The notes: generated by a model from the letters alone, not told the origin. DNA of 19,407 nt from a virus (IMGVR_UViG_2619619132_000004), one strand, 5' to 3'; shown: positions 1-19,407, counted from the stretch's first letter. Numbers and translations: made by a program.

Positions 1-199
1 CACCGTATACCTTGTGATTTTCATCGTATACGCGCTGTATCTCTTTCTTCAGCCAGTCATCGCGCTGCGCACGGGCACTGCGTTTATCCGGATGATGTCG
101 CTGTTGCTGACAGTGGTAATACGTTGACGGGGCAATATGTAGTTCACTGCATACCGGTCCGACCCCGTACAGCTTACGCAGCTTATCCAGCAGTGGCAT
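1..199 (-). CDS. IS3-family transposase OrfB, N-terminal fragment (continues beyond window)
   Basis: Minus-strand translation from ATG at 199: [66 protein letters not shown], typical IS3-family OrfB N-terminus. Start overlaps the orfA stop. Confidence 0.8.
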   Translation of the reverse strand, partial: MPLLDKLRKLYGVGPVCSELHIAPSTYYHCQQQRHHPDKRSARAQRDDWLKKEIQRVYDENHKVYG

Positions 200-525
200 C
201 ACTTTTTCCAGAGGCGGTCGAACTCCGCCTTCGCAAAATAAGCGGAAGCCTGGCGAAGGATATCGTTACTGCGGCGCAGTTCACGATTTTCACGTTCCAG
301 CTCTTTCAGACGCTGACGTTCAGCGGTGGTGAGCCCTCCATCACCGCCCCCGGTATCCCGCTCATGCTGGCGAACCCAGACACGCAGAGTCTCCGGCGTA
401 CAGCCAATCTTTGGAGCAATGGAACAAATTGTCGCCCATTGTGAGTCATATTCGCTCTGACTTTCCAGAACCATACGGACTGCCCGTTGACGGACTTCGG
501 GGGAAAAACGAGTATTTTTAGTCAT
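199..525 (-). CDS. IS3-family transposase OrfA (HTH plus leucine-zipper, 108 aa)
   Basis: ORF track protein [19 protein letters not shown]...[39 protein letters not shown], recognised as IS629/IS3-family OrfA. Confidence 0.85.
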
Positions 526-576
526 CCTGTTTACCTCTTTCTCAGGAAGTTTAGTCTCCAGGATTCCCGGGGCGGT

Positions 577-2013
577 TCAGTTTTCCCTGGCTTTATTGAG
601 TTCCTCCCTCAGTTCCTGGTATTTCGTTTCTACAGATGAGACATTTTCCAGTGATTGCGTGTCCTCATTATGTTTAACTGGAATTTCTTCCACTGATTCA
701 GGCGCTGCCTGTTCATTAGCCATTGTGTCCGATGTTTGTTGCTTTTCTTCATCGCCATGTTTTCCTTCTGCTGTTCCGCGCTGCGGCATCGGTGCTGATG
801 AGCGACCGCAGGCAATTTCCACGATTTCCGGATCCGGGTTAGCGTGATCGGTTTCGGTCAACACTTTGTTGAGATATTCAGTCACGCGTGCCGGGATGGC
901 CTCAATGCCGATTGGTGCTTCTTTCACGGAAGCCACCACAATGGCGCGGGAATAATCCAGCCCACCGGGCATGGCGATAAATTTGTCGCGAAAAACAGAA
1001 AAGGGCGGCTTATTCTCTGACACGATTTCTTCAACGCGTTTTGCGTGTGCTGGGTGCAGGTTATAAATATCCACATCCATTGAACGGGCCAGAACGCCGG
1101 TGGCTACATCTCGTGCGAGTGATGTCTTATCATGTTTGAATCCTTCACCACGATCGGTAATATTTCCGCCGCCAGCGTTAGCACCGGAAGGCGTACGGGT
1201 AATGCCTGAAACATAATTTCCGTTCTGCCATTCTTTTGTCAGCAGGCCCTGATCAAGGTAGTCAGTTTTCATCCAGGTGGAAATGAACTTGTCGAATTCA
1301 GCCGGGCTGATGCGATGATTTGCAGAGTGGGGGAATGCTTTCCCTACAGATTCAGCCAGGCGACTAAGGTGATAGTTCGTCAGTTTATCCAGTTCATGAT
1401 GCGCGGCGCGCACAGCAGTAAGCAGGCTCTGAAGGTAACTGTCCTCTGTGTCCATCTCCATACGGATCACGTTATTGCGTTGTTCTGGTGTGGCATGATG
1501 CCGGTATTTTCCATCTTCATCTTTGCTGAATAAGAAGAGGTGAAGGAAGCGATGAGTAAGGCTCAGAGTGGCGACGGGAATTTCACACTCAGAACAGTCA
1601 TCGTCGCTGTCCGGGGATTCGTTTTTCTCCACATCATCCGGAATAGTTCCGTCCGGGTCATCGTTGTCATCGCCAGCAGTTGTGGCATCTTCACCGTTGA
1701 TGTTGTCATTGAAGGGTATAGCCATCATGGTGATGCCATCTTCCCCGCCTTTTTCATAGCGGTTGCAGAATTCAGTATCAAACACGCCTTCCGGTGGAAG
1801 GTCATTCACGACGGGGAAATTTACGCGAACGGGTTTTTTGAAATCATCCTCGTCGTAGCCTGCATCGTCCATGGCTGCAATGCAGCGGGAAACTGCGACA
1901 GAAAGTTTTCTGGCATCAGCCCAGAAAAAACCGCCTTTGATGCCAAGGCGTTTTCTGACTTTATCGTTTTTTGCTTCGCAGTGTAGTGCAAAAGTCTGTT
2001 TATCAGCGCTCAT
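577..2013 (-). CDS. recE: Exodeoxyribonuclease VIII (RecE)-like protein, N-terminal about 478 aa only; 3' end replaced by IS terminus
   Basis: Long stretches match Rac RecE as I recall it (NFPVVNDLP; [16 protein letters not shown]; [16 protein letters not shown]; [11 protein letters not shown]; YQELRxEL). The stop codon is the terminal TGA of the IS at 577..579, so the nuclease domain expected downstream is absent. RBS GAGG upstream of ATG at 2013. Confidence 0.7.
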
Positions 2014-2120
2014 TGTATTTAAACCTCTGGCTGGATTAGAATTAGAGGCCCTTTGTCTGATTTCTCCGAATACGGTGACGCAGGGAGAAATCCGGTAGCC
2101 TGCGCTGCCGGATTTTTATT

Positions 2121-2507
2121 TCAGTGGAAGGTTGCCTGGTTTGCTGTTTTGTGAGTTGTTTTTCCCTTTTCGTGCTGGCATTCAGAGCAGTCGCACTCAG
2201 AATTTTCTCTTGCAAATTCAAGAGCCTGCGCCAGTGTATGGATTTGTTGTGCTCCAATGTTGCTTCTGACGACTTCACATGCAGCATGAATATATGGGCT
2301 TGGTGTTTTGCCATTTAACCCACATGAAACCAAACGACTGTCTTTATATTCGTTATTTCCAACTTCTGTAAGCACTGAAAAAGAAAATACAAAGTCGATT
2401 TTGTATTCTTTGCATATTTTACTGATGCGTTCTGCAATTTCTTTGAGTTCATTTATTGCATCAGGACTGGTTTCGGAAAATATTTCATTTTGCGCAAGTT
2501 CTTTCAT
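2121..2507 (-). CDS. Hypothetical protein with Cys-rich C-terminus (SECDCSECQHEKGK)
   Basis: 128 aa ORF in the leftward early operon, AT-rich codon usage, weak RBS. No family recognised with confidence. Confidence 0.45.
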   Translation of the reverse strand: MKELAQNEIFSETSPDAINELKEIAERISKICKEYKIDFVFSFSVLTEVGNNEYKDSRLVSCGLNGKTPSPYIHAACEVVRSNIGAQQIHTLAQALEFARENSECDCSECQHEKGKTTHKTANQATFH

Positions 2508-2580
2508 TTTGATTTTTCCGTGATTGATAATTAATGCGGTTTTTATTTCGGCAGATATGGAAGGTGTATTTTATTACTCG

Positions 2581-2802
2581 TCACAACGACTCTGCTTTTA
2601 CGGGTAAGCCATCGCGCCCGATGAAAACTTTAATCATGCAGTCGGTAATGCATGTTTTTGTTGTGAAGTTACGAATATAGAGTTTTCTCTTTTCAATATT
2701 GTTTGCTGAAGCGATATATGTCCGACCTTCATGAAGAACATAATCGCCAGGCGTCACGCACTGACGTGGTATTTCATCAGTTCCGAAGTGATGAGCAATC
2801 AT
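2581..2802 (-). CDS. kilR: KilR-like small protein (73 aa), putative cell-division inhibitor
   Basis: ORF starting [15 protein letters not shown] at ATG 2802 with GGAG RBS 8 nt upstream; 73 aa. Length and position (between recE and the immunity region) fit Rac KilR. Only weak similarity to DicB. Confidence 0.5.
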
Positions 2803-2978
2803 AATTATCTCCATTTTCACAAATGAACTTTGTTGATGCGGTGCCTGGTGCCTCCAGGTGGCGTTAACCAGTTAACAATTAACGCCGGGTCAGGGGACGA
2901 TGACTTTCCGTGACATCCTGTCGGTTTAACTGTTCCGCGTGCGCTGAGCCGCATTCACCGCATCACAAAATTCACTTT

Positions 2979-3040
2979 AAAAAGGGCGGACATCAGCAAT
3001 CGGCAAACCGATATCCGCCAAGGGTTACACACAGCAATGT
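2979..3040 (-). ncRNA. Candidate DicF-like small RNA with intrinsic terminator
   Basis: Minus-strand sequence ...UUGGCGGAUAUCGGUUUGCCGAUUGCUGAUGUCCGCCCUUUUU resembles the DicF 3' half (UUGGCGGUAUCAG...CUGCCGCCCUUUUU) in sequence and architecture. Lies about 180 nt upstream of the KilR-like gene in a 430 bp ORF-free region. 5' end is approximate. Confidence 0.4.
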
Positions 3041-3259
3041 TGTTATTCACAACCGGAAGCGCACGGTCGAAGAAATCTAACGACAATCCTTCTATGGGAA
3101 AGAGTCTTCGCCTCGCGCTTTCGTGTAGTACCCTGGCTTTTCAGGGTAATGTCTGTTCAGTAAAGTGAGAGTGCCGGAACTCACCCGTGTCCGGCGCACG
3201 ATCTCCACCTCACCCGTGGAGAACTCCTCAACTACAAACCCCGTAAGGAGAGTGAATTT

Positions 3260-3469
3260 ATGACACAAGAAGAAAAAGTGATGTTTCTGATGCGGCTGGC
3301 TGTCGATACCTACAATACACAATTCAGGGAGAAAGATATACCTCAAAAGGCAGTTCCTGCCGCGGTAGATAAGGGCGGTGCTATTGCCGTATTTTACGAT
3401 GCATTTGAATCATTTTTTGATGAAAAACTCGACGCTGTTAGCGACTTCGGAACATCGAGTAATAAATAA
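3260..3469 (+). CDS. Hypothetical small protein (69 aa), opposite orientation to the surrounding early-left operon
   Basis: AAGGAG RBS 9 nt upstream of ATG 3260; followed by an intrinsic terminator at 3488..3522. Confidence 0.5.
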   Translation: MTQEEKVMFLMRLAVDTYNTQFREKDIPQKAVPAAVDKGGAIAVFYDAFESFFDEKLDAVSDFGTSSNK

Positions 3470-3797
3470 CGTTCATTACGGTTCTTAAACAACAATCAGT
3501 GGGCTTGATGTTGTTCTTTTCAAGCTCACTTGCCATCACTTCCATTATTCTTGCGCTTACACGAATTATTTGGTGGCTGTAAGCGACGCAACTATCGCTG
3601 ATATTGCTGTTTATTTCTATTACTTCATTTTCACTGGCGGCGCTAAATTTGGATATGCCGTTTCCATTGTCCTGTTTCAGTGCTGTTTCCGCTATCCGGA
3701 TGCGTTCCTGCGTTGCGGAATTTGGGCTAAGTCGATAAACCTGTCTGGCATCTTCCAGAAGCAGGGCGATAATGTGCTTCAGTTCTGTTTCATTCAT
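3438..3797 (-). CDS. Hypothetical protein (120 aa)
   Basis: ATG at 3797 (MNETELKHIIALL...) with GGAG RBS. In the leftward operon downstream of N. Its 3' end overlaps the convergent plus ORF and the hairpin. Confidence 0.45.
   Translation of the reverse strand: MNETELKHIIALLLEDARQVYRLSPNSATQERIRIAETALKQDNGNGISKFSAASENEVIEINSNISDSCVAYSHQIIRVSARIMEVMASELEKNNIKPTDCCLRTVMNVIYYSMFRSR
3488..3522 (+). terminator. Rho-independent terminator candidate (stem AACAACAATCA / TGATGTTGTT, then CTTTTC)
   Basis: Inverted repeat with 7 nt loop followed by a short T-run, immediately after the 3260..3469 ORF. Confidence 0.45.
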
Positions 3798-3828
3798 AGT
3801 TAACTCCGGTAGTTGCAATTTATTAATA

Positions 3829-4014
3829 TCAGGCGGTCAGCTTTTTAAGCTTCTGAACTGCTTTATTCATTTCATCCATACAGTCGATGAATTCGTCCAG
3901 TTTAAGCTGCATTTTTCCGGCGGCCTGAAGAATTTCAAGTTTTAAGGGCGCAAGTTTTTTGTTGTAATCGACGCAGGTTATTAACTCGCGGCCAGTAATA
4001 TTTTGGCTTGGCAC
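3829..4014 (-). CDS. Possible small ORF (61 aa; alternative 27 aa start at 3912)
   Basis: ORF track only; overlaps the 3' end of the 3935..4219 gene in another frame; weak RBS. Confidence 0.2.
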   Translation of the reverse strand: MPSQNITGRELITCVDYNKKLAPLKLEILQAAGKMQLKLDEFIDCMDEMNKAVQKLKKLTA

Positions 4015-4219
4015 GAGATCCGGGTCTTGAACCTACACAAACTATATAGCTCTCTTCTTTCCTCGGAAGGCCAGGTGCATCTAGCAGACGGCCTAGTTCG
4101 AATTTTTTTACGTTGACACCAGGAGGAATCACCTCGACGATAAACCCGATTTTTACCTTCGTTACACCGTTTGATGAGCTTGACCATTTAACTTCATCGT
4201 TCAATTTGAACTTCATCAT
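3935..4219 (-). CDS. Hypothetical protein (94 aa)
   Basis: ATG at 4219 (MMKFKLNDEVKW...) with GAGG RBS, 5 bp downstream of the N stop. Confidence 0.5.
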   Translation of the reverse strand: MMKFKLNDEVKWSSSSNGVTKVKIGFIVEVIPPGVNVKKFELGRLLDAPGLPRKEESYIVCVGSRPGSRAKPKYYWPRVNNLRRLQQKTCALKT

Positions 4220-4224
4220 TAACC

Positions 4225-4530
4225 TCAATCGTAATAAGCCGGAATTGATTTTCCGCGTTGTTTCTGGCGGCCTGAGCAAGTCACACCCATTTCACTGCGT
4301 GGTTTGCGGTAGTAAATACGGTTCTGTTTACTCTCGACTTCTTCTGCCTTCTTGCAGCGAAGGCTTCCGAGTGATACTGCTTTGTCTGCTCCGACGCAAC
4401 CAGAGATCTTTAGCGCAATCTTCCGTGTCAGTCTTTCACTACTGCGCCGCTCTGCAATAAGTTCTTCCCTGCGAGCTTTATAGCGGCTTTTTGCCGTACC
4501 TTTGGATTCTTTCCAGATTATGGTTACCAT
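4225..4530 (-). CDS. N: Antitermination protein N (lambda N-like, 101 aa)
   Basis: C-terminus YYRKPRSEMGVTCSGRQKQRGKSIPAYYD matches lambda N (YSKPGERGITCSGRQKIKGKSIPLI); Arg/Lys-rich N-terminus; AAGGAG RBS before ATG at 4530; nutL immediately upstream. Confidence 0.8.
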   Translation of the reverse strand: MVTIIWKESKGTAKSRYKARREELIAERRSSERLTRKIALKISGCVGADKAVSLGSLRCKKAEEVESKQNRIYYRKPRSEMGVTCSGRQKQRGKSIPAYYD

Positions 4531-4640
4531 GATGGTCTCCTTTAAGTGGCTTTGGTGTATGACGCGTCGAGGTGTTTTTCTTCTCGATCGCGGCCTTGCA
4601 ACTGAAATTCGCGTCATCCCCAAAACCACTTAGATTTTGG

Positions 4641-4680
4641 TCTCAACGGTTAGGTTGAGAGTCCATCAATGTTAAAGAGC
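4641..4680 (-). promoter_or_regulatory. nutL candidate: boxA GCTCTTTAACATTG plus boxB hairpin TCTCAAC-CTAACC-GTTGAGA
   Basis: Read on minus strand. The same boxA 14-mer occurs at nutR (6289..6302); boxA resembles the rrn boxA consensus GCTCTTTAACAA. Confidence 0.65.
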
Positions 4681-4685
4681 CGGCC

Positions 4686-4860
4686 AATCTGTTCCGTTTG
4701 GCTTCCAGCGTCCTGCTGTTGAATTGAAGATGACCTAAGTTATCTGGTTGCGCAATAACTATATTTATCATTTTATGAAAAACGTTATAAATGACTGATA
4801 ACAAAAATATTTTATTTTTTGTGGTATCCGCGTGATATTTTCAAGGGGGAAAGGCTGATT
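4686..4860. promoter_or_regulatory. Probable PL/OL region and divergent promoter for the 4864..5085 ORF
   Basis: AT-rich interval upstream of nutL and N with GTTAT/ATAAC half-site dyads (4738..4760, 4786..4804) similar to those in the cI-cro intergenic region. Exact -35/-10 not assigned. Confidence 0.35.
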
Positions 4861-4863
4861 GTT

Positions 4864-5085
4864 ATGGGTGATTGCATGTTAATCGAAGGGGAATTTGGTG
4901 TGTTGCACCAGCGGGTAGTCGAAATTCTAGGGGTGTCGTTGCTTGAGGTTATTGCTACTGGGGAAGCTATTTCAGCAGATGCTATTGCGGGAATGATCCG
5001 AGTGCTTCACCATGATGAATTGGATGATCTCGCTGTGAAGTTAGCTATAGATGTGTTACTTCAGGATATGCGACTGTGTAATTAA
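4864..5085 (+). CDS. Hypothetical small acidic protein (73 aa) between PL and cI, convergent with cI
   Basis: GGGGGAAAGG RBS before ATG 4864; ends 2 bp before a hairpin (5096..5113) usable on both strands. Confidence 0.45.
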   Translation: MGDCMLIEGEFGVLHQRVVEILGVSLLEVIATGEAISADAIAGMIRVLHHDELDDLAVKLAIDVLLQDMRLCN

Positions 5086-5086
5086 G

Positions 5087-5113
5087 TAAATAAAACCCGG
5101 CACTGGAGCCGGG
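5087..5113 (-). terminator. Rho-independent terminator downstream of cI (stem CCCGGC/GCCGGG, then UUUUAUUUA on minus strand)
   Basis: GC-rich 6 bp stem with 6 nt loop and a T-rich tract on the minus strand. Confidence 0.6.
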
Positions 5114-5237
5114 GGATTTAGAAATGGCATTTTATGAATTGGCTACTTGGCGAATGGTTTACCATCGGTGGTATTGAGCACAATAAAAGGCCGTTCTTCG
5201 TGAGTGTTCTTATAGCAAAAGTTCAGTTGGAGTCTGA

Positions 5238-5945
5238 TTACCAGCTATGTGATGACCAGAACACTCGCCCTATGATTCTTACGTTTTTGTAGAATTCTTC
5301 TCTGTTCATTACTTCATCAGGATACTCTTCGCGGTTTATCGATCTGATAATTACCGATGTTGGCGTGGCTATGAGCGTTTTTACCCTTAACAAATCAGCT
5401 TGGCAAATTGCATATGTTTTACCATCCCTGATGCTCGTATCTTGCGTGTTTACCCCCACCACATCACCATCATGGAGTGTTGGCTCCATGCTTTGCCCAA
5501 CAACCCTGACCAACTTTGCCGCTTTTTCTGGAACTCCCATTTTTTTCAGGTAATAGCGCCTAAAAACTAGAGAGAATTCTGCGGACTCCTCCAATGCACA
5601 ACTTCCTCCGCCAGCTGAAAGTGAAATATTTAGAAGGGGGAGCGCAACAAATTCGTCATTATCATTTTGATGATCATCCCAGGCGATAGCTTTTAAAGAT
5701 GATTCCCGAGCATTAGATGGCTCTTCTGCGCTCTGTGGTCTCATTGACCCTATACCAGAGCTTAGCCATTCAGGGCGAACTCTTAACGCGTTGGCTAATT
5801 CGACCATTTTACGTGATCCGGTTGTTTTACCAGATGACATCTTTTGTATGGCTGGTTGTGATACCCCCACCATGTCTGCAAGTTGTGCTTGTGACAACCC
5901 GGCTGAACTCATGGCGGCATTTAGTCTTTCTGCGAATGTTTTCAT
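5238..5945 (-). CDS. cI: CI-type prophage repressor (N-terminal HTH, C-terminal S24 LexA-like peptidase)
   Basis: HTH segment LSQAQLADMVGVSQPAIQKM; Ala-Gly cleavage site (SLSAGGG); GQSMEP serine motif and downstream Lys. Divergent from cro. Confidence 0.85.
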   Translation of the reverse strand: MKTFAERLNAAMSSAGLSQAQLADMVGVSQPAIQKMSSGKTTGSRKMVELANALRVRPEWLSSGIGSMRPQSAEEPSNARESSLKAIAWDDHQNDNDEFVALPLLNISLSAGGGSCALEESAEFSLVFRRYYLKKMGVPEKAAKLVRVVGQSMEPTLHDGDVVGVNTQDTSIRDGKTYAICQADLLRVKTLIATPTSVIIRSINREEYPDEVMNREEFYKNVRIIGRVFWSSHSW

Positions 5946-6055
5946 ACCTGTAATCTATAACCACGGTTATCAAAAGTAAAACAACAATTGTTATTGCTCT
6001 GGTGTATAACTCATGTTATTTTTGGTTATGCTTTATTTGCTGTAGAGGTATGCTC
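5946..6055. promoter_or_regulatory. OR operator / PR-PRM promoter region between cI and cro
   Basis: 110 bp divergent intergenic region with dyads ATAACCACGGTTAT (5957..5970) and AACAATTGTT (5983..5992) and a further GTTAT...GGTTAT element (6014..6028). Confidence 0.6.
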
Positions 6056-6280
6056 ATGAATTTAGTGATTCAGCGAGCCTTGAATATTGTTGGCAGTCAA
6101 AAACGACTTGCAGCTGATTGCGGCGTATCACAGCCCGCTGTTCATAAATGGTTGCGAGGCGGAAAAGTTTCTCCTGAAAAAGTTTTCGCTATCGTTAATG
6201 CCACCAATGGTCAGGTTAAGGCTTACGAAATTCGCCCGGACTTACCGCACCTGTTTCCTCATCCGAACCAGGCTGAATAA
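6056..6280 (+). CDS. cro: Cro-like HTH regulator (74 aa)
   Basis: GAGG RBS 7 nt before ATG 6056; HTH motif QKRLAADCGVSQPAVHKWLRGG. Confidence 0.75.
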   Translation: MNLVIQRALNIVGSQKRLAADCGVSQPAVHKWLRGGKVSPEKVFAIVNATNGQVKAYEIRPDLPHLFPHPNQAE

Positions 6281-6287
6281 GTAACAC

Positions 6288-6328
6288 CGCTCTTTAACAT
6301 TGCTGGTCGTTCACCTCTAACAGGGTGA
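6288..6328 (+). promoter_or_regulatory. nutR candidate: boxA CGCTCTTTAACATTG plus boxB hairpin TCACCT-CTAACA-GGGTGA
   Basis: Located between cro and cII as in lambda; shares boxA and loop motif CTAAC with nutL. Confidence 0.6.
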
Positions 6329-6396
6329 GCAAACATCAGTGGCAAACCCATTGGGGATTGCCGCTTAACCCCATATCAATATAGGAAAATTAACAA

Positions 6397-6693
6397 ATGT
6401 CACAAACAAGTTACAGCAAACTGTCACAGCGCGATATCGATCGCGCTGAAACGGATTTACTTATCAACCTGTCAGCTCTGACGCAAAGGGGACTGGCGAA
6501 GATGATTGGCTGCCATGAATCGAAGGTCAGTCGTACCGACTGGCGATACATCGCGGCGATTTTATGCGCGTTCCAGATGGCATCTGATATCAGTCCGATC
6601 AGCCGGGCTTTCCAGCATGCCATTAACGTTCATGCAAATAAAAAACGTCCGGTTGGGGCCGGACGTTCTGAGCAAATCCTGATGAACATCTGA
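6397..6693 (+). CDS. cII: CII-like transcriptional activator (98 aa)
   Basis: C-terminus NKKRPVGAGRSEQILMNI resembles lambda CII (NKKRPAATERSEQIQMEF); HTH in the centre; position after cro/nutR. Confidence 0.75.
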   Translation: MSQTSYSKLSQRDIDRAETDLLINLSALTQRGLAKMIGCHESKVSRTDWRYIAAILCAFQMASDISPISRAFQHAINVHANKKRPVGAGRSEQILMNI

Positions 6694-6756
6694 TATTCAG
6701 GCAGGGCATGGAGCAATACACGGGAATAATTCTGCCACATCTGGAAGAATTTCGCC

Positions 6757-6913
6757 AGCAACAACACCAACCGCAGCAGCCTGAAGCCGATTGGGTTAAC
6801 CCGGAGATACCGGGACCGTCTGTGAAGATGTGCAGTCACACCAATGTGCAGTCACACCAACCGCAGCAGCCTGAAGCCGATTGGGTTAACCCGGGAGATA
6901 CCGGGACCGTCTG
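6757..6913 (+). repeat. Two tandem degenerate copies (6765..6822 and 6855..6913) of a roughly 60 bp segment also found inside the O-like gene (7603..7688)
   Basis: CACCAACCGCAGCAGCCTGAAGCCGATTGGGTTAACCCGG(G)AGATACCGGGACCGTCTG twice, plus a 16 bp tandem ATGTGCAGTCACACCA x2 between them. Confidence 0.8.
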
Positions 6914-6946
6914 CGGTATGGAGTAAATCTTGTATGCGAGGGGACT

Positions 6947-8029
6947 ATGCGTAATTACGCAACAATTTCACCTCAGTTCTGGTTAGGCGATACAGGGCGA
7001 AAACTCAGGAAGTCTGGTCCGGAATGTATGGTAGTGGCGTTGTATATGATGACCTCGCCTCATTCCAATATGCTGGGCCTTTATTACCTGCCTGTTTTGT
7101 ACATTGCTCACGAAACCGGACTTGATCCTGAAGGGGCTTCTAAGGGGCTTCAAATGGCTTGCGAGGCTGGTTTTTGCAGCTATGACCATGATTCTGAGGT
7201 TGTATGGGTGCATGAAATGGCAGCATGGCAGGTTGGTGAATCGCTGAAACCTGGCGATAACCGTTGTGCTGGGGTAAGAAATGAATATTCCGCGTTGCTG
7301 GAAAATCCTTTTTTATCATCCTTTTATGATAGATATAAGGATGATTTCCACCTGGATGTCAGACGTGAATCATGTCGGAAAATTGAAGCCCCTTCAGAGC
7401 CCCTTTCAAGCCAAGAACAGGAACAGGAACAAGAACAGGAAAGGGATAAAACCCTTCTGGTCCATGGCGAAAAAATCGCCACGGACCCACAGGGGGATTT
7501 TTGTCCTGTTCTGACTGAACGTCCAGGACCAGCTGGCACGACACCGGAAGCAGATTCCGGGCGTTGTGTGCAGCAGGTGCTGATCGTCGAACCGGAGCAA
7601 CAACGCCAACCGCAGCAGCCTGAAGCCGATTCCGCGATGAGCGGGAAGCCGATTGGGTTAACCCGGGCGATGCCGGGACCGTCTGCGGGACGAGTTGATT
7701 ATCCTGACGTGTTCGAACGGGTCTGGCGTGAATATCCGCATCGGGCAGGGTCAAACCCGAAGAAATCCGCGTTCAATGCCTGGAGGGCCAGATTACGCGA
7801 AGGGGTGTCACCGGATGTCGTGCTGGATGGCGTGAGGCGTTACGCAAGATACCTGGAGGCTACCGGGAAAGCGGGAACTGAATTTGTTCAGCAGGCATCG
7901 ACGTTTTTTGGCCCGAACAGGAATTTCGAAAATCCGTGGTCGCTGCCGAAGGCTGGCGCAGTCAGCCTGCGTTGCGTGAATCACATTTCTGAACCGGACA
8001 CCGAAATTCCGCCGGGTTTCAGGGGGTAA
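6947..8029 (+). CDS. Phage replication initiation protein (functional analogue of lambda O), 360 aa, with internal EQ repeat
   Basis: GAGGGG RBS before ATG 6947; sits between cII and the DnaC-like loader; contains the repeated segment 7603..7688 and an (EQ)n run at 7411..7440. Confidence 0.6.
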   Translation: MRNYATISPQFWLGDTGRKLRKSGPECMVVALYMMTSPHSNMLGLYYLPVLYIAHETGLDPEGASKGLQMACEAGFCSYDHDSEVVWVHEMAAWQVGESLKPGDNRCAGVRNEYSALLENPFLSSFYDRYKDDFHLDVRRESCRKIEAPSEPLSSQEQEQEQEQERDKTLLVHGEKIATDPQGDFCPVLTERPGPAGTTPEADSGRCVQQVLIVEPEQQRQPQQPEADSAMSGKPIGLTRAMPGPSAGRVDYPDVFERVWREYPHRAGSNPKKSAFNAWRARLREGVSPDVVLDGVRRYARYLEATGKAGTEFVQQASTFFGPNRNFENPWSLPKAGAVSLRCVNHISEPDTEIPPGFRG

Positions 8030-12188: not shown

Positions 12189-12506
12189 TCATGATATTAC
12201 TTGGATCCCGTTTTTCTCTACGACTGAAAGAAGGCGAAGAGCGGCACCTCCCGGCCGTTTTACACCACGTTCCCAGTCTGATATCAGGTTTTTACTGACG
12301 TTGAGGTATCTGGCAAAAACAGGTTGAGACAGATGCTCTCGTTCGCGCAGTGCACGGATCCTTTCCGGAGACATTACCGGCGCTGGCTGGAGACAAGTTT
12401 CATCGAATTCTCGCATAGTCTGTTTCGTTACTGCGCCGATATCATGAAGCGATTCCATCATTTCATGTACGGATGCAAGCGCATCACTGCGGTAATTTTT
12501 ACTCAT
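12189..12506 (-). CDS. HTH (XRE-like) antitoxin of a HigB-2/HigA-2-type toxin-antitoxin pair (105 aa)
   Basis: GGAGG RBS before ATG 12506; C-terminal HTH segment; immediately downstream of the toxin gene on the same strand. Confidence 0.65.
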   Translation of the reverse strand: MSKNYRSDALASVHEMMESLHDIGAVTKQTMREFDETCLQPAPVMSPERIRALREREHLSQPVFARYLNVSKNLISDWERGVKRPGGAALRLLSVVEKNGIQVIS

Positions 12507-12560
12507 TGGGTACCTCCGTAAACTGACCCTGTAGAATCAGTTGTGCCAGTTGTTCATCTG

Positions 12561-12869
12561 TTAGATTGAGTACGTGAGGAGCCCCTTCCGAAATGCACTT
12601 TCCTCAGTAGCGGTTATATTTTCACGTTCATTTTTTGCGTATGCATATACGAAAAAGGCCCTTGTGCCGACGCGATAGAAAATGATTGTGCGATAACCGC
12701 CAGATTTGCCGCCACCGACTCGTGGCAGACGTTGCTTGATAACGCCGTTACCCAGGTTTGCTGAGATAAGCCCGTTATCAGCCTGTTTAACAATTTCGCG
12801 CAGTGACTGGTCGGATATTTTGTTTTTGTGTGCAAATCGCTCAAACCAGGCGTTTTTAAAAATGCGCAT
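12561..12869 (-). CDS. RelE/HigB-2-like toxin (102 aa)
   Basis: Motifs GGGKSGGYRTIIFYR and FVYAYAKNERENI resemble Vibrio HigB-2 (GKRGGSRIIYYF...YGKNEMSDL); toxin-first operon order. Confidence 0.65.
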   Translation of the reverse strand: MRIFKNAWFERFAHKNKISDQSLREIVKQADNGLISANLGNGVIKQRLPRVGGGKSGGYRTIIFYRVGTRAFFVYAYAKNERENITATEESAFRKGLLTYSI

Positions 12870-12886
12870 TTTTTTGTTCCGTTATT

Positions 12887-12911
12887 AATGTATAACACAT
12901 AGTATTACATT
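12887..12911. promoter_or_regulatory. Inverted repeat AATGTA-N13-TACATT just upstream of the HigB-like toxin start; putative autoregulatory operator
   Basis: Perfect 6 bp arms seen in sequence, 18 bp upstream of the toxin ATG (12869). Confidence 0.4.
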
Positions 12912-12937
12912 GCGTAGGGATCTGCAATGCCATCAGT

Positions 12938-12967
12938 TTGACAACGTCGCGTATCCGGGATTATATT
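12938..12967 (+). promoter_or_regulatory. Sigma70-like promoter: TTGACA (12938..12943), 17-18 bp spacer, TTATAT/TATATT
   Basis: Consensus -35 hexamer and AT-rich -10 at canonical spacing. Confidence 0.5.
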
Positions 12968-12973
12968 CATCGC

Positions 12974-13056
12974 ACGCCAGCAAAATCTGGCGTCGGGATT
13001 AGGAACCCCGGATAGAAACCGCGACAGAGACACGCCGCGAGCGTGTTTTTTATTGT
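12974..13056 (+). ncRNA. Candidate small RNA or attenuated leader (about 80 nt) ending at an intrinsic terminator
   Basis: No ORF; 5' hairpin CGCCAG-CAAAAT-CTGGCG (12973..12990); terminator ACACGC-CGCGA-GCGTGT then U6 (13030..13051); downstream of the promoter at 12938. Confidence 0.4.
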
Positions 13057-13214
13057 CGTATGCACACGCACATCTGAATTATGGTGGGGCGTATAGGGGA
13101 GCTGAAAAGCTCGCCGGTTGGTTTCCCGGTAGTTCCTAACCCTGTACGTCTCGCCACCCGATGATTAGGAACCTGACGGTGGTGATAGTTTAGAAACCAC
13201 TCGAGGGCGTCATT

Positions 13215-13886
13215 ATGACAACTCAAGTTTCTGTTGAAACACTCTCCACGATTACTTACAAGCAGATCCCCGTTATCACTACCGAACTTTTGGCGCACCT
13301 TTACGGCACAGAAGCTATTCGTATTCGCCAGAATCACCACGAAAACAAAGGTCGTTTCATTGAGGAAAAACACTTCTTCAAACTTGAAGGTGAAACTTTA
13401 CGTGAGTTCAAGCACAGAGTAGCTTTTAACTACTCTGTGAAAATTGCCCGTAACGTTCGCTCCCTCATCCTATGGACAGAACGCGGCGCAGCCCGTCACG
13501 CAAAAATGCTCGAAACTGATCAGGCGTGGGAGGTATTCGAAAAACTGGAAGACTGCTATTTCAGCCAGGGAAAAACAGCACCAACCGAACAGCAGCCGCA
13601 GATTCAGCCACAATTCACAGCCGAAGAAATCATCCTCCTTTGCTACATGCAGCTCTGGATGGAAAAAGCCCAGGACCTCAGCAAACACCTGTATCCCATT
13701 ATGAAAGAGCTGAACTCCTCATACACGAACAAGCTGTATGACATTGCGTTTGAGACCATCTACATGGTGACGAAGAACAGAGACGCGCTACTAAGGGAGG
13801 TAACACGTCTCGACATGTCAAGTTCCATTATCCAGCGGGCCATGCCAATGCTGAAAAGCCTGCGGGCAAGACAATTTGAATTCTGA
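13215..13886 (+). CDS. ORF6N-domain antirepressor-like protein (223 aa)
   Basis: GAGGG RBS; N-terminal region resembles ORF6N/Ant-type antirepressors of lambdoid prophages; own terminator downstream. Confidence 0.6.
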   Translation: MTTQVSVETLSTITYKQIPVITTELLAHLYGTEAIRIRQNHHENKGRFIEEKHFFKLEGETLREFKHRVAFNYSVKIARNVRSLILWTERGAARHAKMLETDQAWEVFEKLEDCYFSQGKTAPTEQQPQIQPQFTAEEIILLCYMQLWMEKAQDLSKHLYPIMKELNSSYTNKLYDIAFETIYMVTKNRDALLREVTRLDMSSSIIQRAMPMLKSLRARQFEF

Positions 13887-13890
13887 AACT

Positions 13891-13915
13891 AAAGGAGCTT
13901 CGGCTCCTTTTTTGT
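13891..13915 (+). terminator. Rho-independent terminator (GGAGC-UUCG-GCUCC then U7)
   Basis: Perfect stem with UUCG tetraloop and T-run. Confidence 0.8.
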
Positions 13916-13940
13916 TGGGAAAATCCAGTGAGAGGGAATA

Positions 13941-14351
13941 ATGAACCAGACTATCTTCCTCCGAAGTAAGCAGCAGCAACAATTTGCCATTAACGCCATC
14001 CTTGCAACAACTCTCGATAAAGACAAACCCGTTACGATCCGCATCACCGATTACAAGCGGAATCTCGATCAAAATGCCAAATTTCACGCGATGGTCGCTG
14101 ATATCTCCCGACAGGTTCAGTGGTGCGGCAGATGGCTAAAACCAGAACAGTGGAAAGTTTTGTTAATCAGCGGACATGCCGTGGCTACAAAACAGGAAGC
14201 TGATGTTTTGCCAGGTCTTGAAGGTGAATACGTCAATATCCGCGAAAGCAGTGCGCAGATGAGCGTGAAGCGTATGGCAAGCCTGATTGAGTACACAACT
14301 TCCTGGGCTGTGGAGCAGGGTGTCAGATTTACCGACAGGAGGTATGAATGA
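13941..14351 (+). CDS. ninB: NinB recombination protein
   Basis: Similarity to lambda NinB ([25 protein letters not shown] versus lambda LDQNRKLWACLGDVSRQVEWHGRWL). Confidence 0.8.
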
Positions 14352-14539
14352 GACGACAGCGACGAAGCATTACCGATATAGTCTGTGAAAACTGCAATTA
14401 CCTTCCAACGAAACGCTCCCGAAATAAACCCAGGCCAATCCCCAACGAATCTGATGTAAAAACCTTCAATTATACGTCTCACCTGTGGGATGTCCGGTGG
14501 CTCAGACGTCGTGCAAGATTTAATAGTCACTCCGGATAG
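14348..14539 (+). CDS. ninE: NinE-like protein (63 aa)
   Basis: [27 protein letters not shown]...; start overlaps the ninB stop (ATGA); position as in lambda and DLP12 nin regions. Confidence 0.6.
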
Positions 14540-14559
14540 TTCAATGTACGAGGAATAAG

Positions 14560-14853
14560 ATGATGGCAAACCTACGCAAAGAAGCGCGTGGCAGAGAATG
14601 TCAGGTACGGATTTACGGCGTATGCAATGGCAATCCTGAAACTACAGTTTTGGCGCATTACCGAATAGCTGGAATTTGCGGAACGGGAATGAAGCCAGAT
14701 GACCTGTTGGCTGCATGGGCCTGTAGTGACTGCCATAATGAAATCGATCGCCGTACTCGCATTCTCGACAACAACGACGCCAGACTTTACCACCTGGAAG
14801 GCGTGATCAGGACGCAGGCGATATTGCTGAAGGAGGGGAAGATTAAGTCATGA
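14560..14853 (+). CDS. DUF1364-family protein (YbcO-like, Cys/His-rich putative nuclease)
   Basis: Conserved Cys/His pattern (RECQVR...CNGN...CSDCHNEID); located immediately upstream of rusA as ybcO is in DLP12. Confidence 0.65.
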   Translation: MMANLRKEARGRECQVRIYGVCNGNPETTVLAHYRIAGICGTGMKPDDLLAAWACSDCHNEIDRRTRILDNNDARLYHLEGVIRTQAILLKEGKIKS

Positions 14854-15212
14854 ATGAATATGAGTTTGTGCTTCCCTGGCCGCCGACGGTGAATACCTAC
14901 TGGCGAAGACGGGGAAGCCAGTACTACATCAGCGATAAAGGCCAGAAATACCGAAAAGACGTACAGCAAATCATCCGGCAACTCAGATTAGACATTTTCA
15001 CTAAATCACGACTTCGCATCACAATTATTGCTGAACCACCAGACTCCCGCCGTCGCGACCTCGATAACATCCTGAAAGGTTTACTCGACTCTCTTATCCA
15101 CGCCGGATTTGCGGAAGACGACGAGCAATTCGATGACATTCGCGTAATTCGCGGCGTGAAAGTGCCTGGCGGTAGAGTGGGGATAAAAATCACCGAACTG
15201 GAGAACATTTGA
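14850..15212 (+). CDS. rusA: RusA Holliday-junction resolvase
   Basis: Motifs LPWPPTVNTYW and RRRDLDN match RusA; start overlaps the upstream stop (ATGA). Confidence 0.85.
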   Translation: MNEYEFVLPWPPTVNTYWRRRGSQYYISDKGQKYRKDVQQIIRQLRLDIFTKSRLRITIIAEPPDSRRRDLDNILKGLLDSLIHAGFAEDDEQFDDIRVIRGVKVPGGRVGIKITELENI

Positions 15213-15406
15213 TGAATGCTAAAATTCAAACGATACCTGAATTACTGATCTGCACCAGGGGAAATCAGACAGAAGTCGCCAGAATACCGAACTGCAATCG
15301 TGCTACAGTCAGAAAATACATTGATGATAAAGATGCGAAAAAGCACGCCGTCGTCAATGGCGTCCTTATGGTTCATCGCGGATGGGGTAAAGATACTGAT
15401 GCGTGA
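15212..15406 (+). CDS. ninH: NinH-like protein (64 aa)
   Basis: [42 protein letters not shown] closely matches lambda NinH ([42 protein letters not shown]). Confidence 0.8.
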
Positions 15407-15779
15407 TATCCGGCAGGTTCTTGAGCGCTGGGGGGCATGGGCGGTAAATAACTATGAGGATGTTACATGGTCGCCCATTGCTGCCGGATTTAAGGGACTG
15501 ATCCCCGAAAAAGTAAAATCACGTCCACAGTGCTGTGACGATGATGCGATGGTGATATGCGGGTGCATAGCCCGCCTTTACCGGAACAATCGCGATCTGC
15601 ATGACTTGCTGGTTGATTACTACGTGTTGGGGGAGACGTTCATGGCGCTGGCACGTAAGCATGGATGCTCTGATGGAACTATCGGTAAAAAATTACAGAA
15701 AGCGGAGGGCGTGGTTGAAGGGATGTTAATGTTACTTGGTGTCAGACTGGAAATGGACCGATATGCGCAACGCCTCTGA
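15399..15779 (+). CDS. Q: Late-gene antiterminator Q (933W/phage 21-type, 126 aa)
   Basis: [25 protein letters not shown]...[16 protein letters not shown] matches the short Q family of Stx-type lambdoid phages; last gene of the nin operon. Confidence 0.75.
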
Positions 15780-15818
15780 CAGGAGGCGTTTGCCGTTCAC
15801 TATGTGAAGTGTGTCAAT

Positions 15819-15848
15819 TTGTGAGCGTTATGCTGTTTACTTTATAGT
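15819..15848 (+). promoter_or_regulatory. Candidate late promoter PR' (TTGTGA, 17-18 bp spacer, TATAGT)
   Basis: Sigma70-like hexamers at canonical spacing about 40 bp downstream of the Q stop. A qut site is not identifiable by eye. Confidence 0.35.
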
Positions 15849-15910
15849 ACAGGGACGTAAGAGTTATCTACCTGTTAATAACATATATACAACAATGAAC
15901 AGGGGGCAAA

Positions 15911-16570
15911 ATGGACATTGAAGATTTTCTGGAGGCGGAAGACAATGATCTGTCTCTGTGGAATGATGATATTTTAAGCATTGACTGGTTCGTTATCCTC
16001 AAAGAGCTTTTGAAATACCAGAACAGGTTAAAGTTAAACTATTCAGAATTACTTCTGCTGGCTAATTTTGTTTCATTTCACCAGGACGTAGATTCGCAAA
16101 CATTACCATCAATATCTCTTTTTGCCACCAGAATGCGTGCATCTCGTGCCATTATAGAAGAAGGCTTTCAACGCCTGGAGGAGAAAGGGATGTTGCAGAA
16201 GATAAGTTATGCTCAAATCGGTCATGATTATGATTTGCGGAACGTTTATGACATCAAGCCATTAATTCGTAAGTTAATTGAGGTGCTGAAAACCGAGTAT
16301 GATAAAAAGCACACTTGCCCCCTCTGCGGCAAAATAGCTGTCTCTGATGAGGAAATTGAGAAAAAATTCGGATTCAGAATTTGCGGGAATAAGAAAAGGC
16401 CGCAAAGCTGGTGCCGTTCATGCAGAAGCACGAAACAACGCAGACTGAATTCATCGCTAATTGGCAAAAAAAGCCCCGAAAATCTCCGCCCGAGGTGGTG
16501 TGAAGCGTCGCGGAACCCCGGATTCCACTCACGATTGAACGAGGTGCTAAAAAGTATTTTACGTACGTAA
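15911..16570 (+). CDS. Hypothetical zinc-ribbon protein (219 aa; CPLCGK...CRSCRS), moron downstream of Q
   Basis: GGGGG RBS 5 nt before ATG; AT-rich composition unlike the flanking phage genes; own terminator 45 bp downstream. Confidence 0.5.
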   Translation: MDIEDFLEAEDNDLSLWNDDILSIDWFVILKELLKYQNRLKLNYSELLLLANFVSFHQDVDSQTLPSISLFATRMRASRAIIEEGFQRLEEKGMLQKISYAQIGHDYDLRNVYDIKPLIRKLIEVLKTEYDKKHTCPLCGKIAVSDEEIEKKFGFRICGNKKRPQSWCRSCRSTKQRRLNSSLIGKKSPENLRPRWCEASRNPGFHSRLNEVLKSILRT

Positions 16571-16615
16571 AAATCTGCATATCATGATAAGAGTGGTTAC
16601 ATTGCCACGCTGCTT

Positions 16616-16641
16616 AACCCGCCGATGCGCGGGTTTTTTTG
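16616..16641 (+). terminator. Rho-independent terminator (AACCCGC-CGAUG-CGCGGGUU then U7)
   Basis: GC-rich stem and T-run after the 219 aa ORF; may serve as tR'. Confidence 0.75.
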
Positions 16642-16820
16642 TACCCAGAATCCTGTGAGCTATACGGAAAGTACACAGAAAGGAAGGTACGACCGCAATT
16701 AATAACAAAATCTTAAAAATCTCATATGGCACTATTAGTTTTCTAAATATTGTATATTTTAAGTATTGCAGGATAACCCTGTAACGAAGTTTGCGTAACA
16801 GCATTTTGCTCTACGAGTTT

Positions 16821-16851
16821 GCCAGCCTCCCCTGGTGGCTGGCTTTTTTTG
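16821..16851 (+). terminator. Rho-independent terminator (GCCAGCC...GGCUGGC then U7)
   Basis: 7 bp GC stem and T-run in non-coding DNA about 180 bp after the previous terminator. Confidence 0.7.
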
Positions 16852-17114
16852 TATCCGTTCAACGGGAATGTTACATACCTCACAATTAAGTCAGTTGAAT
16901 GTTGTCTGCCCGGATGAGAATTTGTTAGAAAAAACTGCATGGTGAATCCCCCTGAGCGGAGGGGCGACTGGTGACGGTATAATCTCTGATTATCAAAACG
17001 AGAATGACGCGGGTTTAGTGGCACCGGGCTGAACTCACCGGGAGGCACCCGGCACCATGCAATGGCACATAGCGCCACTCTCCAGCCCCTCTCCGGAGGG
17101 GCTTTCTTATGGAC

Positions 17115-17143
17115 AAAAAAGCCCGCGCTGGGAGACGCGGGCG
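17115..17143 (-). terminator. Rho-independent terminator on the minus strand (GCCCGCG...CGCGGGC then U6)
   Basis: Reverse complement shows a 7 bp GC stem followed by TTTTTT; candidate promoter TTGCGC-18-TATTAT lies upstream on the minus strand (about 17190..17225). Confidence 0.55.
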
Positions 17144-17335
17144 GCAAGGAATAAACAATGAAACGTGAAGTAATATTTCAGCTGGCGAATAATACCCCAT
17201 AGTAATCACTCTGCGCAACTGCGCGACCTTTTTCGAATTGCGGGCTGTAGTCTCCCTTCTGCCATTGTCCTGTAACTTCCGGACTTCAGCCCGCTCCTTA
17301 TTTTACTCACAATATTATCCCGGCCGGGAGGATTC

Positions 17336-19108
17336 ATGGCATTTAAACACTATGATGTTGTCAGGGCGGCGTCGCCGTCAGACCTTGCGAAACGAATAAC
17401 TCAAAAACTGAAGGAAGGGGGGCAGCCTTATGGTAGTGCGCTGATTTCGACAGCTGGTTATGGTGCGGAGTTCATCCAGCCAGTTGTGAGTGAGGGGAGC
17501 ATCTCATCACCAGAGGAGCCAGGCAACCGTCCGACGACCTCAGCGCCTTCTGTTGCGCCAGAATATTACTATGTGATCGCGCTTGCTGGTCAGTCCAATG
17601 GTATGTCATACGGTGAGGGACTGCCATTACCGGATACATTCGACAGCCCTGATCCACGTATTAAACAGTTAGCGCGTCGCAGTACGGTGACACCGGGCGG
17701 TGCAGCATGCAAATATAACGACATCATTCCGGCGGACCATTGTCTGCATGATGTGCAGGACATGAGCCGTCTTAACCATCCGAAAGCGGACCTGTCAAAG
17801 GGGCAGTACGGAACCGTGGGGCAGGGGCTGCATATCGCCAAAAAACTGCTGCCGTTTATACCGGCGAATGCGGGCATTCTGCTGGTTCCGTGCTGTCGTG
17901 GTGGTTCAGCGTTCACCACCGGAGCTGATGGCACATACAGTGACGCGAGTGGCGCCTCGGAGAATTCAACCCGCTGGGGTGTGGACAAGCCGCTGTATAA
18001 GGACCTTATCGGTCGAACAAAAGCGGCACTGGAGAAGAACCCGAAAAATGTGCTGTTTGCCGTGGTGTGGATGCAGGGGGAATTTGATTTTGGCGGTACG
18101 CCGGCAAATCATGCCGCACAGTTTGGTGCGCTGGTTGATAAATTCCGTGCAGACCTGGCGGATATGGCAGGCCAGTGCGTCGGTGGCTCTGCTGGCGGTG
18201 TTCCCTGGATATGCGGGGACACGACGTATTTCTGGAAGCAGAAGAACGAATCCACGTACCAGACGGTGTACGGCAGCTATAAAAATAAAACGGAAAAGAA
18301 TATCCATTTCGTACCGTTCATGACCGATGAGAACGGGGTGAATGTGCCGACGAACAAACCGGAAGAAGACCCGGACATTCCGGGTATCGGTTATTACGGT
18401 TCGAAATGGCGTGACAGCTCAGCCACCTGGACGTCACAGGACAGGGCGAGCCATTTCAGTTCATGGGCTCGCCGTGGGATTATTTCCGACCGTCTGGCAA
18501 CGGCGATTCTGAGCTGCGCGGGTAAGTCTTCTGCGTTTGTTAATGGTACTGCCGGGGTGGTTGTTCCAGACAGACCGGTTACCACCTCAGAGTCTGTAAT
18601 TTTTTACGATGCCAAAAAAGCTACAGACAATCAGCTGAAACCCTATGGCTGGGACGGTGTGTATGGCAGGCGCACACTGGTTGATGACAGCGGCAATAAA
18701 GCTCTGCGAATTGAGAAAAATAACAGCGCGAAATCCTGGTCAATGTACTGTGATATTGCTGCAGACAAGGCAAAACTTTTACTGGAAAAAGGCGGGGAAA
18801 TTGCTGTCCGGTTTAAAATCCCCGAAAACGTCAATCTTGAGACAACCAGAAACAAGTATGCCTTTGGTTTGTACTGGCGAATAGCGGAATGGCCGGGTGA
18901 GGGTGGTGAAGGCCATCTGAGTTCTTTCTTTGTCCAGACAGATAAAGCCAGTATTAATGTTGCATACCATCATACAGTTAATCAACAAAAAGAACTTGGC
19001 ACGTTTGGCGCATTCGACCATGACTGGCATACGCTTGCATTTAAATTTAAGGGCAGTAACAGCATTAATGAACCGCCCCGGGTTTCCTGGAGAGTGTTTT
19101 ATCTGTGA
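17336..19108 (+). CDS. NanS-p-like SGNH/SASA-family sialate O-acetylesterase, 3'-truncated by IS insertion
   Basis: GGGAGG RBS; GQSN motif (IALAGQSNGMSYGEG) typical of SASA/SGNH esterases; position downstream of Q as for nanS-p in Stx-type prophages. The last 13 codons and the stop lie inside the IS that begins at 19069. Confidence 0.65.
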   Translation: MAFKHYDVVRAASPSDLAKRITQKLKEGGQPYGSALISTAGYGAEFIQPVVSEGSISSPEEPGNRPTTSAPSVAPEYYYVIALAGQSNGMSYGEGLPLPDTFDSPDPRIKQLARRSTVTPGGAACKYNDIIPADHCLHDVQDMSRLNHPKADLSKGQYGTVGQGLHIAKKLLPFIPANAGILLVPCCRGGSAFTTGADGTYSDASGASENSTRWGVDKPLYKDLIGRTKAALEKNPKNVLFAVVWMQGEFDFGGTPANHAAQFGALVDKFRADLADMAGQCVGGSAGGVPWICGDTTYFWKQKNESTYQTVYGSYKNKTEKNIHFVPFMTDENGVNVPTNKPEEDPDIPGIGYYGSKWRDSSATWTSQDRASHFSSWARRGIISDRLATAILSCAGKSSAFVNGTAGVVVPDRPVTTSESVIFYDAKKATDNQLKPYGWDGVYGRRTLVDDSGNKALRIEKNNSAKSWSMYCDIAADKAKLLLEKGGEIAVRFKIPENVNLETTRNKYAFGLYWRIAEWPGEGGEGHLSSFFVQTDKASINVAYHHTVNQQKELGTFGAFDHDWHTLAFKFKGSNSINEPPRVSWRVFYL

Positions 19109-19407
19109 ACTCAGGCTGCCAGATCATCGTTTCCGATGGAAGCATAATAAGCTTTTTCTGCTTCTGCCGGAGGAGTATGGCCCAGCCTTTCCAGCAATCG
19201 TCGATTGTTATACCAGTCCACCCACGTGAGTGTGGCCAGTTCCACTTCTGCACGGTTTTTCCAGCTCTTACGGTGTATTACCTCCGCTTTGTAAAGACCA
19301 TTGATGCTCTCCGCCATCGCGTTGTCATACGAGTCGCCTGTACTTCCTGTTGATGCCAGTAATCCGGCTTCCTTAAGCCGCTGTGTGTAGGCCAGCGATA
19401 CATACTG
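19069..19407 (-). mobile_element. IS3-family insertion sequence (IS629-like), partial copy running off the window end; terminus at 19069
   Basis: Terminal sequence TGAACCGCCCCGGGTTTCCTGGAGA at 19069; minus strand encodes an OrfB C-terminus. Same orientation as the copy at 1..579. Confidence 0.85.
19111..19407 (-). CDS. IS3-family transposase OrfB, C-terminal fragment (continues beyond window)
   Basis: MAESINGLYKAEVIHRKSWKNRAEVELATLTWVDWYNNRRLLERLGHTPPAEAEKAYYASIGNDDLAA is a typical IS3-family OrfB C-terminus (DDE region end). Confidence 0.8.
   Translation of the reverse strand, partial: QYVSLAYTQRLKEAGLLASTGSTGDSYDNAMAESINGLYKAEVIHRKSWKNRAEVELATLTWVDWYNNRRLLERLGHTPPAEAEKAYYASIGNDDLAA

Follow-up and report, generated by a model that had tools for sequence, protein, structure and literature searches.

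Two IS629 copies with adjacent deletions bracket what is probably the central part of a lysis- and Red-defective lambdoid prophage beside ynfG in Escherichia coli

The viral DNA IMGVR_UViG_2619619132_000004 (19,407 nucleotides; "the window" designates this whole stretch) consists of about 18.5 kb of lambdoid prophage DNA located between two partial copies of an insertion sequence (IS), each of which cuts a gene. This arrangement raises the question of whether the segment is a self-contained remnant, bracketed like a composite transposon, as an earlier note on the same DNA had considered, or a piece of something longer. The evidence presented here favors, with a probability of about 0.88, the interpretation that the window represents the 18.5-kb central portion of a lambdoid prophage found beside ynfG in the lineage of E. 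coli 1-110-08_S3_C1, that this prophage carries two copies of IS629, each with a deletion of ~1.85 kb, and that its core was isolated by the assembler.

When the two fusion proteins encoded in the window were looked up by exact match, the window proved to be the whole of draft contig JHDL01000008.1 (assembly GCA_000601335.1) from E. coli 1-110-08_S3_C1, which has the sibling isolates C2 and C3. Twenty short-read contigs with an inner junction (the boundary between an IS and the prophage core) were collected from the three sibling isolates and from IMG/VR, ENA, and Logan assemblies, and all 20 break 25–579 nt inside the IS. One SPAdes contig has exactly 127 nt of the IS at each end, and both inner junctions are also present on a 19,234-bp IMG/VR contig. 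Compared with these 20 contigs, the complete genome CP116919.1 is the sole sequence that reads through the inner junctions. The IS, 1,310 bp long, is a multi-copy element: it was present in 3,043 of the 5,426 complete E. coli genomes, at a median of 4 places per genome, when copies with at least 80% of the element covered were counted. Because the core lies between two copies of such an element, it was assembled as a separate contig. The window ends inside the repeat, and therefore a gene missing from the window need not be missing from the genome; the lack of integrase and structural genes in it is an artifact of the contig boundary. The methodological lesson is that a window starting and ending in one IS, in the same orientation, has the signature of a short-read contig broken at a repeat.

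Both terminal elements are IS629, of the IS3 family. The left part (1–579, minus strand) includes the 579 nt at the left inverted repeat (IRL) end, with orfA (199–525, minus; 108 amino acids, Pfam PF01527 HTH_Tnp_1), the IS3-family ALIL frameshift pseudoknot (128–244, minus; 116 bits in Rfam, where the gathering score is 50), and the start of orfB. The right part (19069–19407, minus strand) includes the 339 nt at the right inverted repeat (IRR) end, with the 3′ end of orfB (19111–19407, minus; rve_3/rve_2 by Pfam). Both are truncated by the contig ends, not by biology. The 25-nt terminal inverted repeats, 92% complementary, are located at 555–579 (...CCCGGGGCGGTTCA) and 19069–19093 (TGAACCGCCCCGGG...). 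The two full copies in CP116919.1 are 1,310 bp long and differ by 1 nt. They have the features of IS629, i.e., a length of ~1.3 kb, imperfect terminal repeats starting TGAACCGCCCCGGG, and orfA (HTH) and orfB (DDE/rve) connected by a programmed -1 frameshift with its pseudoknot. The 150 nt tested at window 430–579 are 100% identical to copies annotated as "IS3-like element IS629 family transposase", and the full 1,310-bp element is 99.3–99.4% identical to annotated IS3-family elements. The two copies point in the same direction, as originally noticed: both are on the minus strand, the left part having orfA and the IRL end (579), and the right part having the orfB 3′ end and the IRR end (19069).

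Comparison with intact prophages located the ancestral ends of the two interrupted genes. The intact prophage of E. coli NCCP15648 (NZ_CP009050.1, locus L001) matches window 580–19070 at 98%. At the left junction, L001 homology begins exactly at window 580. The gene recE' (577–2013, minus strand), of the RecE family (PF06630), ends after codon 478 of 690; its product corresponds to residues 1–478 of the 690-amino acid protein, is 100% identical to that of another relative (L019), and its TGA stop codon corresponds to the reverse complement of TCA, the last three nucleotides of the IS (577–579). At the right junction, L001 homology stops at 19068–19070, where a TG is common to the IS end and the esterase gene. 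This gene, nanS-p' (17336–19108, plus strand), encodes residues 1–578 of a 636-residue SASA-family carbohydrate esterase (DUF1737, SASA, and DUF6645 domains), after which there are 12 IS-encoded residues and a stop codon at 19106–19108. The intact homologues, of 690 and 636 amino acids, continue for 212 and 58 further codons, respectively, and do not end at the window positions. The earlier note was thus correct in that the IS terminus at 579 supplies the stop of recE', that the terminus at 19069 cuts the nanS-like gene 13 codons before the stop of the fused open reading frame (ORF), and that both genes are truncated. Neither inner junction was present in any complete RefSeq E. coli genome searched, and the left junction had 0 matches in the species-representative genomes scanned.

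The sequence beyond the two IS copies was found by looking up ordinary genes near the junctions, which led to CP116919.1 (loci L026 and L028), where both elements are read through. This genome is 99.4% identical to window 1–17437, with the alignment running straight across the left junction, and at the right junction its IS is inserted at the same esterase nucleotide as in the window. To the left of the left IS, CP116919.1 carries a lambda-type exo gene starting at the internal Met55, DUF4222, a gene for a 387-amino acid integrase, and ynfG/ynfH/dmsD. To the right of the right IS, the prophage resumes 96 bp upstream of Rz and continues with Rz, a phosphatase gene, both terminase subunits, portal, and capsid, in a stretch 99.8% identical to L001.

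The outer-left junction is also present in the source assembly. In its predicted product, an in-frame TAA in the IS end is followed by Met55 of Exo, giving a 171-amino acid protein. Both E. coli 1-110-08_S3_C1 and C2 have this Exo fragment among their annotated proteins, in the variant common to the relatives L018–L021 and L025, and it is encoded on JHDL01000039.1, a 221-kb contig of the same assembly as the window. The contig begins 489 nt inside the IRR end of IS629, with the junction ...GGGGCGGTTCA joined to ATGTCCTAC..., and its order is IS629 orfB 3′ end, exo', DUF4222, int, ynfG, ynfH, dmsD, clcB, bioD, and mlc. Its 339 terminal IS nucleotides are identical to the right IS part of the window, and the integrase gene lies 1.1 kb beyond the IS. 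A homologue search with the Exo fragment returned no 171-amino acid cluster representative, and the CP116919.1 version was not in the protein collection searched. The outer-right junction was found by a DNA scan of viral contigs on a 51.4-kb IMG/VR isolate-genome contig (L039). The IS part of L039 has 0 mismatches in 438 positions with the left IS part of the window (CP116919.1 differs at 3 positions), and the sequence past the IS is 99.95% identical to L001 33316–43477. The single ORF specific to this junction has 26 amino acids, too few for a look-up, and Rz, the phosphatase, and TerS are identical across relatives.

Taken together, the chromosomal order is ynfG, int, DUF4222, and exo' (from Met55), followed by IS629; then recE' (1–478), cI, the toxin-antitoxin (TA) genes, Q, and nanS-p' (1–578), followed by the second IS629; and finally Rz, phosphatase, terminase, portal, and capsid. 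The idea that the prophage had been whittled down to an 18.5-kb core without integrase, excision, structural, and lysis genes, bracketed like a composite transposon, has in its favor that the window lacks all of those genes, that the IS copies are in direct orientation, and that holin and lysozyme genes were truly deleted (see below). However, both ends of the window are places where the contig breaks within a repeat, the integrase gene is 1.1 kb past the left IS in the same assembly, and Rz, terminase, portal, and capsid genes lie past the right IS in CP116919.1 and L039. Besides, the unit lacks a surrounding duplication (its outer flanks are CAT and AGA), and intact prophages located at this ynfG site are collinear with it. 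A reduction to the core is consequently very unlikely. As for the genes whose absence had been noticed, the holin and lysozyme genes are indeed lost, but the integrase gene is on JHDL01000039.1 and the structural genes are in CP116919.1 and L039; the prophage continues past both IS copies, so the reading as an 18.5-kb remnant is not supported.

The two IS copies replace prophage DNA. As defined by comparison with L001 and at least eight other intact relatives, the left IS takes the place of L001 10120/1–12000 (~1.88 kb), which includes exo codons 1–54, bet, gam, and recE codons 479–690. The right IS takes the place of L001 31476/8–33315 (~1.84 kb), which includes esterase codons 579–636, DUF1378, DUF826, holin, lysozyme, and the start of a 37-amino acid ORF. 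The intact gene order is also found in L017–L021, L027, L029, and L032. No target-site duplication flanks either IS: in CP116919.1 the flanks are CAT-IS-GTT and TAA-IS-AGA, and the short (3–4 bp) duplication of a simple IS629 insertion is therefore missing at both copies. This lack is due to the adjacent deletions and is no argument against the identification of the elements as IS629. At each copy the IS has been kept, no duplication is present, and contiguous ancestral DNA is missing on one side. The absence of duplications together with the loss of ~1.85 kb at each IS supports IS-associated deletion, and agrees with the earlier proposal of an IS insertion followed by an IS-mediated deletion. 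The two deletions are nearly equal in size (~1,880 and ~1,840 bp), maybe by coincidence.

Alternatively, IS629 could have inserted twice in a simple manner, leaving a 3-bp duplication at each site and the prophage otherwise complete. Such insertions are the default result of IS3-family transposition, and the prophage does go on past both elements. Nevertheless, there is no duplication among the four flanks, the 1.88 kb and 1.84 kb missing here are present in every intact relative, and in the source assembly Exo begins at Met55 right at the IS end, all of which make this explanation extremely unlikely. A reciprocal fragment combining the IS with the 3′ part of recE, which would be a sign of simple insertion, was not found by the search. 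Two candidates for such a fragment were rejected: P0001 is an uninterrupted recE called from an internal Met, and P0002 (Shigella dysenteriae 1617) reflects another IS insertion, located ~22 codons upstream.

Within the favored interpretation, IS629 would have inserted twice into the prophage, and DNA on one side of each copy would then have been lost, either in a one-ended deletion next to the IS or when the IS recombined with another copy close by. The Red genes and the 3′ end of recE would have been removed in one event, and the 3′ end of the esterase gene, the two DUF genes, holin, and endolysin in the other. Either flank of each IS could be the original target. The 9 bp beside the IRL end (GTTTTCCCT, window 580–588) are the same as those at an unrelated IS629 insertion in brxA (L042 1751–1759) found in many genomes; this match could be fortuitous, given the large number of sites, or could indicate that certain targets are preferred.

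Several observations weigh against this interpretation. The outer-right junction was seen in CP116919.1, which belongs to the same lineage, and on L039, an IMG/VR contig from an isolate of unconfirmed strain, not in the source assembly. Contig 8 (the window) is not physically linked by short reads to the contigs with the outer junctions, and the linkage rests on CP116919.1. This genome is an imperfect proxy, with 91–95% identity to the window across the esterase region (L028 11660–13164 compared with window 17558–19068), although the IS is at the identical nucleotide. Furthermore, the mechanism of deletion and the order of events are deduced, and no intermediate consisting of a simple insertion with its duplication was found. 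The esterase region of the window is 99.97–100% identical to those of intact relatives and of short-read contigs of the same lineage. The divergence in CP116919.1 is possibly the product of a gene conversion with a nanS-p paralog as donor, or of mis-polishing in the long-read assembly; the CP116919.1 record has several split genes, e.g., cI and Rz.

Another explanation for the geometry of the window is that the source contig is a circle, composed of the 18.5-kb core and one IS629, that originated by recombination between the two IS copies, perhaps replicates from the phage origin, and was opened by the assembler at a point in the IS, while the chromosome keeps exo'-IS629-Rz. The same orientation of the partial IS ends is what would be expected from a single IS split on linearizing a circle, no overlap exists between the IS parts (579 and 339 nt), a circle and a tandem arrangement look alike in short reads, and the core includes replication genes. 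On the other hand, in the same-lineage genome assembled from long reads the core is chromosomal and has a full IS copy on either side, and the intact cI repressor gene would be expected to silence phage replication. The product of recombination that would be left in the chromosome, a single IS629 with the exo' flank on one side and the Rz flank on the other, was found in 0 of the 5,426 complete genomes. The contigs with the inner and outer junctions had similar k-mer coverage (32.6 and 23.3, respectively) in one metagenome sample. A circular source is thus highly improbable. Homologous recombination could in principle act on the two direct IS copies, so the expectation that recombination between them could excise the core holds as far as the geometry goes, but the product was not observed in those genomes.

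The resemblance to composite transposons is geometric only. As in those elements, two near-identical IS copies bracket the 18.5-kb segment; here, unlike in composite transposons, there is no target duplication around the IS-cargo-IS unit (outer flanks CAT and AGA), the segment occupies its ancestral place, and no second genomic context was found among the contigs with junction-specific proteins in the collections searched. The composite-like element that had been suggested is therefore not supported. IS3-family elements that move by a copy-out-paste-in mechanism are known to form composite transposons only rarely. That the IS-core-IS unit arrived as such by transposition from another prophage has a next to negligible probability: the outermost ends do form a valid IRR...IRL pair of IS629, but intact prophages of a single family, at the same attachment site, are collinear with the DNA on both sides of each IS copy, with 98–99.95% identity, the outer flanks lack a target duplication, and every junction-bearing contig has the same context.

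Apart from the three sibling isolates, the two-IS configuration recurs in one complete genome and in 10 or more SRA or metagenome assemblies, which indicates that it is stable in the lineage. It is hardly probable that the core acts as a unit, released as a circle with one IS and the phage origin that could persist like a lambda-dv plasmid or reinsert via the IS, or that the TA cluster exerts selection against its loss. If selection by the TA genes did operate, it would explain the stable two-IS configuration in many independent samples.

The outcome of these events is a full-length prophage defective in lysis and Red, not an 18.5-kb remnant. Loss of holin and endolysin would leave the prophage grounded, with no cell lysis, and loss of exo, bet, and gam would abolish Red recombination. 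The prophage kept a cI-type repressor, hok/sok, Fic/Doc, RelE, an antirepressor with isrK and C4 RNAs, Q, the integrase, and the virion genes. Its biological weight is minor, being one more IS629-grounded lambdoid prophage in which lysis and Red were lost and immunity and TA functions were kept. IS-driven prophage decay of this kind is well known and ordinary. As in other cryptic lambdoid prophages of E. coli, the genes kept include those for immunity, integrase, and morphogenesis, and the prophage was disabled by IS insertions and small deletions; here, however, the damage is limited to two ~1.85-kb deletions, and the rest is 98–99.95% identical to apparently intact relatives at the ynfG site. 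The defective prophage pool of O157 Sakai is an example of such cryptic prophages (PMC7430833).

The type of event is also already known. Insertions of IS629 and adjacent deletions in O157:H7 were reportedly described by Kusumoto et al. in 2011. The element found here shares with IS629 of O157:H7 its length of 1,310 bp, terminal repeats, orfA/orfB with the ALIL pseudoknot, and 99–100% identity. In both cases lambdoid prophage genes are targeted, and the combination of a kept IS, no duplication, and missing flanking DNA corresponds to the published small structural polymorphism. The difference is in the host, which here is a lineage of human-gut E. coli isolates, not O157. IS629 causes gene inactivation and IS-adjacent deletions that range from a few nucleotides to more than 40 kb (PMC9943667), and its insertions and adjacent deletions in E. 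coli prophages have been described for O157:H7 (Ooka et al. 2009, PMC2765283; reviewed in PMC9943667). IS1203 is an isoform of IS629.

The early-left recE/exo region has been struck by IS elements independently in other lineages, with records that include H4/H111 (NZ_CM149872.1). IS1203/IS629 is found inside exo in O157 genomes; the S. dysenteriae 1617 sequence (P0002) is an IS read-through fusion in the early-left region that arose in an independent event; RecE is split into 503 and 272 amino acids in an NCTC strain (L024 12006–13063); and in L022 a recE-int fusion was generated by a deletion without an IS. With respect to the RecE-family protein itself, its Pfam Exonuc_VIII match is limited to residues 53–197, and a PDB sequence search with the intact 690-amino acid protein (L001 11362–13434) produced no match. 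L001 has its own lambda-type exo, bet, and gam beside the RecE-family gene. The name recE may overstate what is known of the function of this protein.

The gene content of the core is that of a lambdoid prophage, with cI/cro/cII, replication, nin, and Q in the lambda order, as determined from the annotation of the 98%-identical L001 and from Pfam searches on the window ORFs. The integrase gene is at one end beside the chromosomal attachment site, outside the window on JHDL01000039.1, and of the lysis cassette (holin, endolysin, and Rz) Rz alone remains. The family to which this prophage belongs is common in E. coli, and close relatives, with 98.4–98.7% identity, are found in O104:H4 strains. 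The early-left genes (2121–4530, minus strand), identified by gene calls and Pfam on L004 and mapped to the window, include those for a 128-amino acid hypothetical protein (2121–2507), KilR (2581–2802), and several small hypotheticals. The immunity region (5238–6693, both strands) has a cI-like repressor gene (5238–5945, minus; HTH_3 and Peptidase_S24 by Pfam), a cro-like gene (6056–6280, plus), and cII (6397–6693, plus). Next come the replication and accessory genes (6947–10624, plus strand), which encode a 360-amino acid O-like protein, a DnaC/IstB-like ATPase (8036–8776), DUF1627, DUF977, and DUF551. Direct repeats of 36–49 nt, in three copies each, were found at 6757–6916 and 7596–7688, with 89–97% identity between well-matched copies. 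They are common to the region of a 72-amino acid ORF and the gene for the O-like replication protein, and may be related to the origin. A 16-nt tandem duplication is located at 6828–6859.

The TA cluster (10921–12869, both strands) has three modules within 2 kb, i.e., the sok RNA with hok (10921–11245), a 59-amino acid ORF with the Fic/Doc toxin (11455–12138), and an HTH antitoxin with the RelE toxin (12189–12869, minus). As a speculation, these modules might disfavor the loss of the IS-bracketed core. The region that follows (12974–15779, plus strand) includes the isrK and C4 RNAs, the antirepressor gene, the nin region (NinB, NinE, YbcO, RusA, and NinH), and the antiterminator gene Q. The isrK (69 bits) and C4 antisense (66 bits) RNAs were detected with Rfam side by side at 12974–13161, upstream of the ORF6N/P22_AR_C antirepressor gene (13215–13886, plus), in an arrangement that looks like the P1/P7-type c4-ant secondary immunity module in a lambdoid prophage. 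A scan of the window for tRNA genes found none. Downstream of Q, there are a gene for a DnaD_N-domain protein (15911–16570, plus; Pfam) and a full-length homologue of the small RNA STnc100 (16909–17114, plus; Rfam, 165 bits), which precede the esterase gene and occupy the position where Stx phages carry stx.

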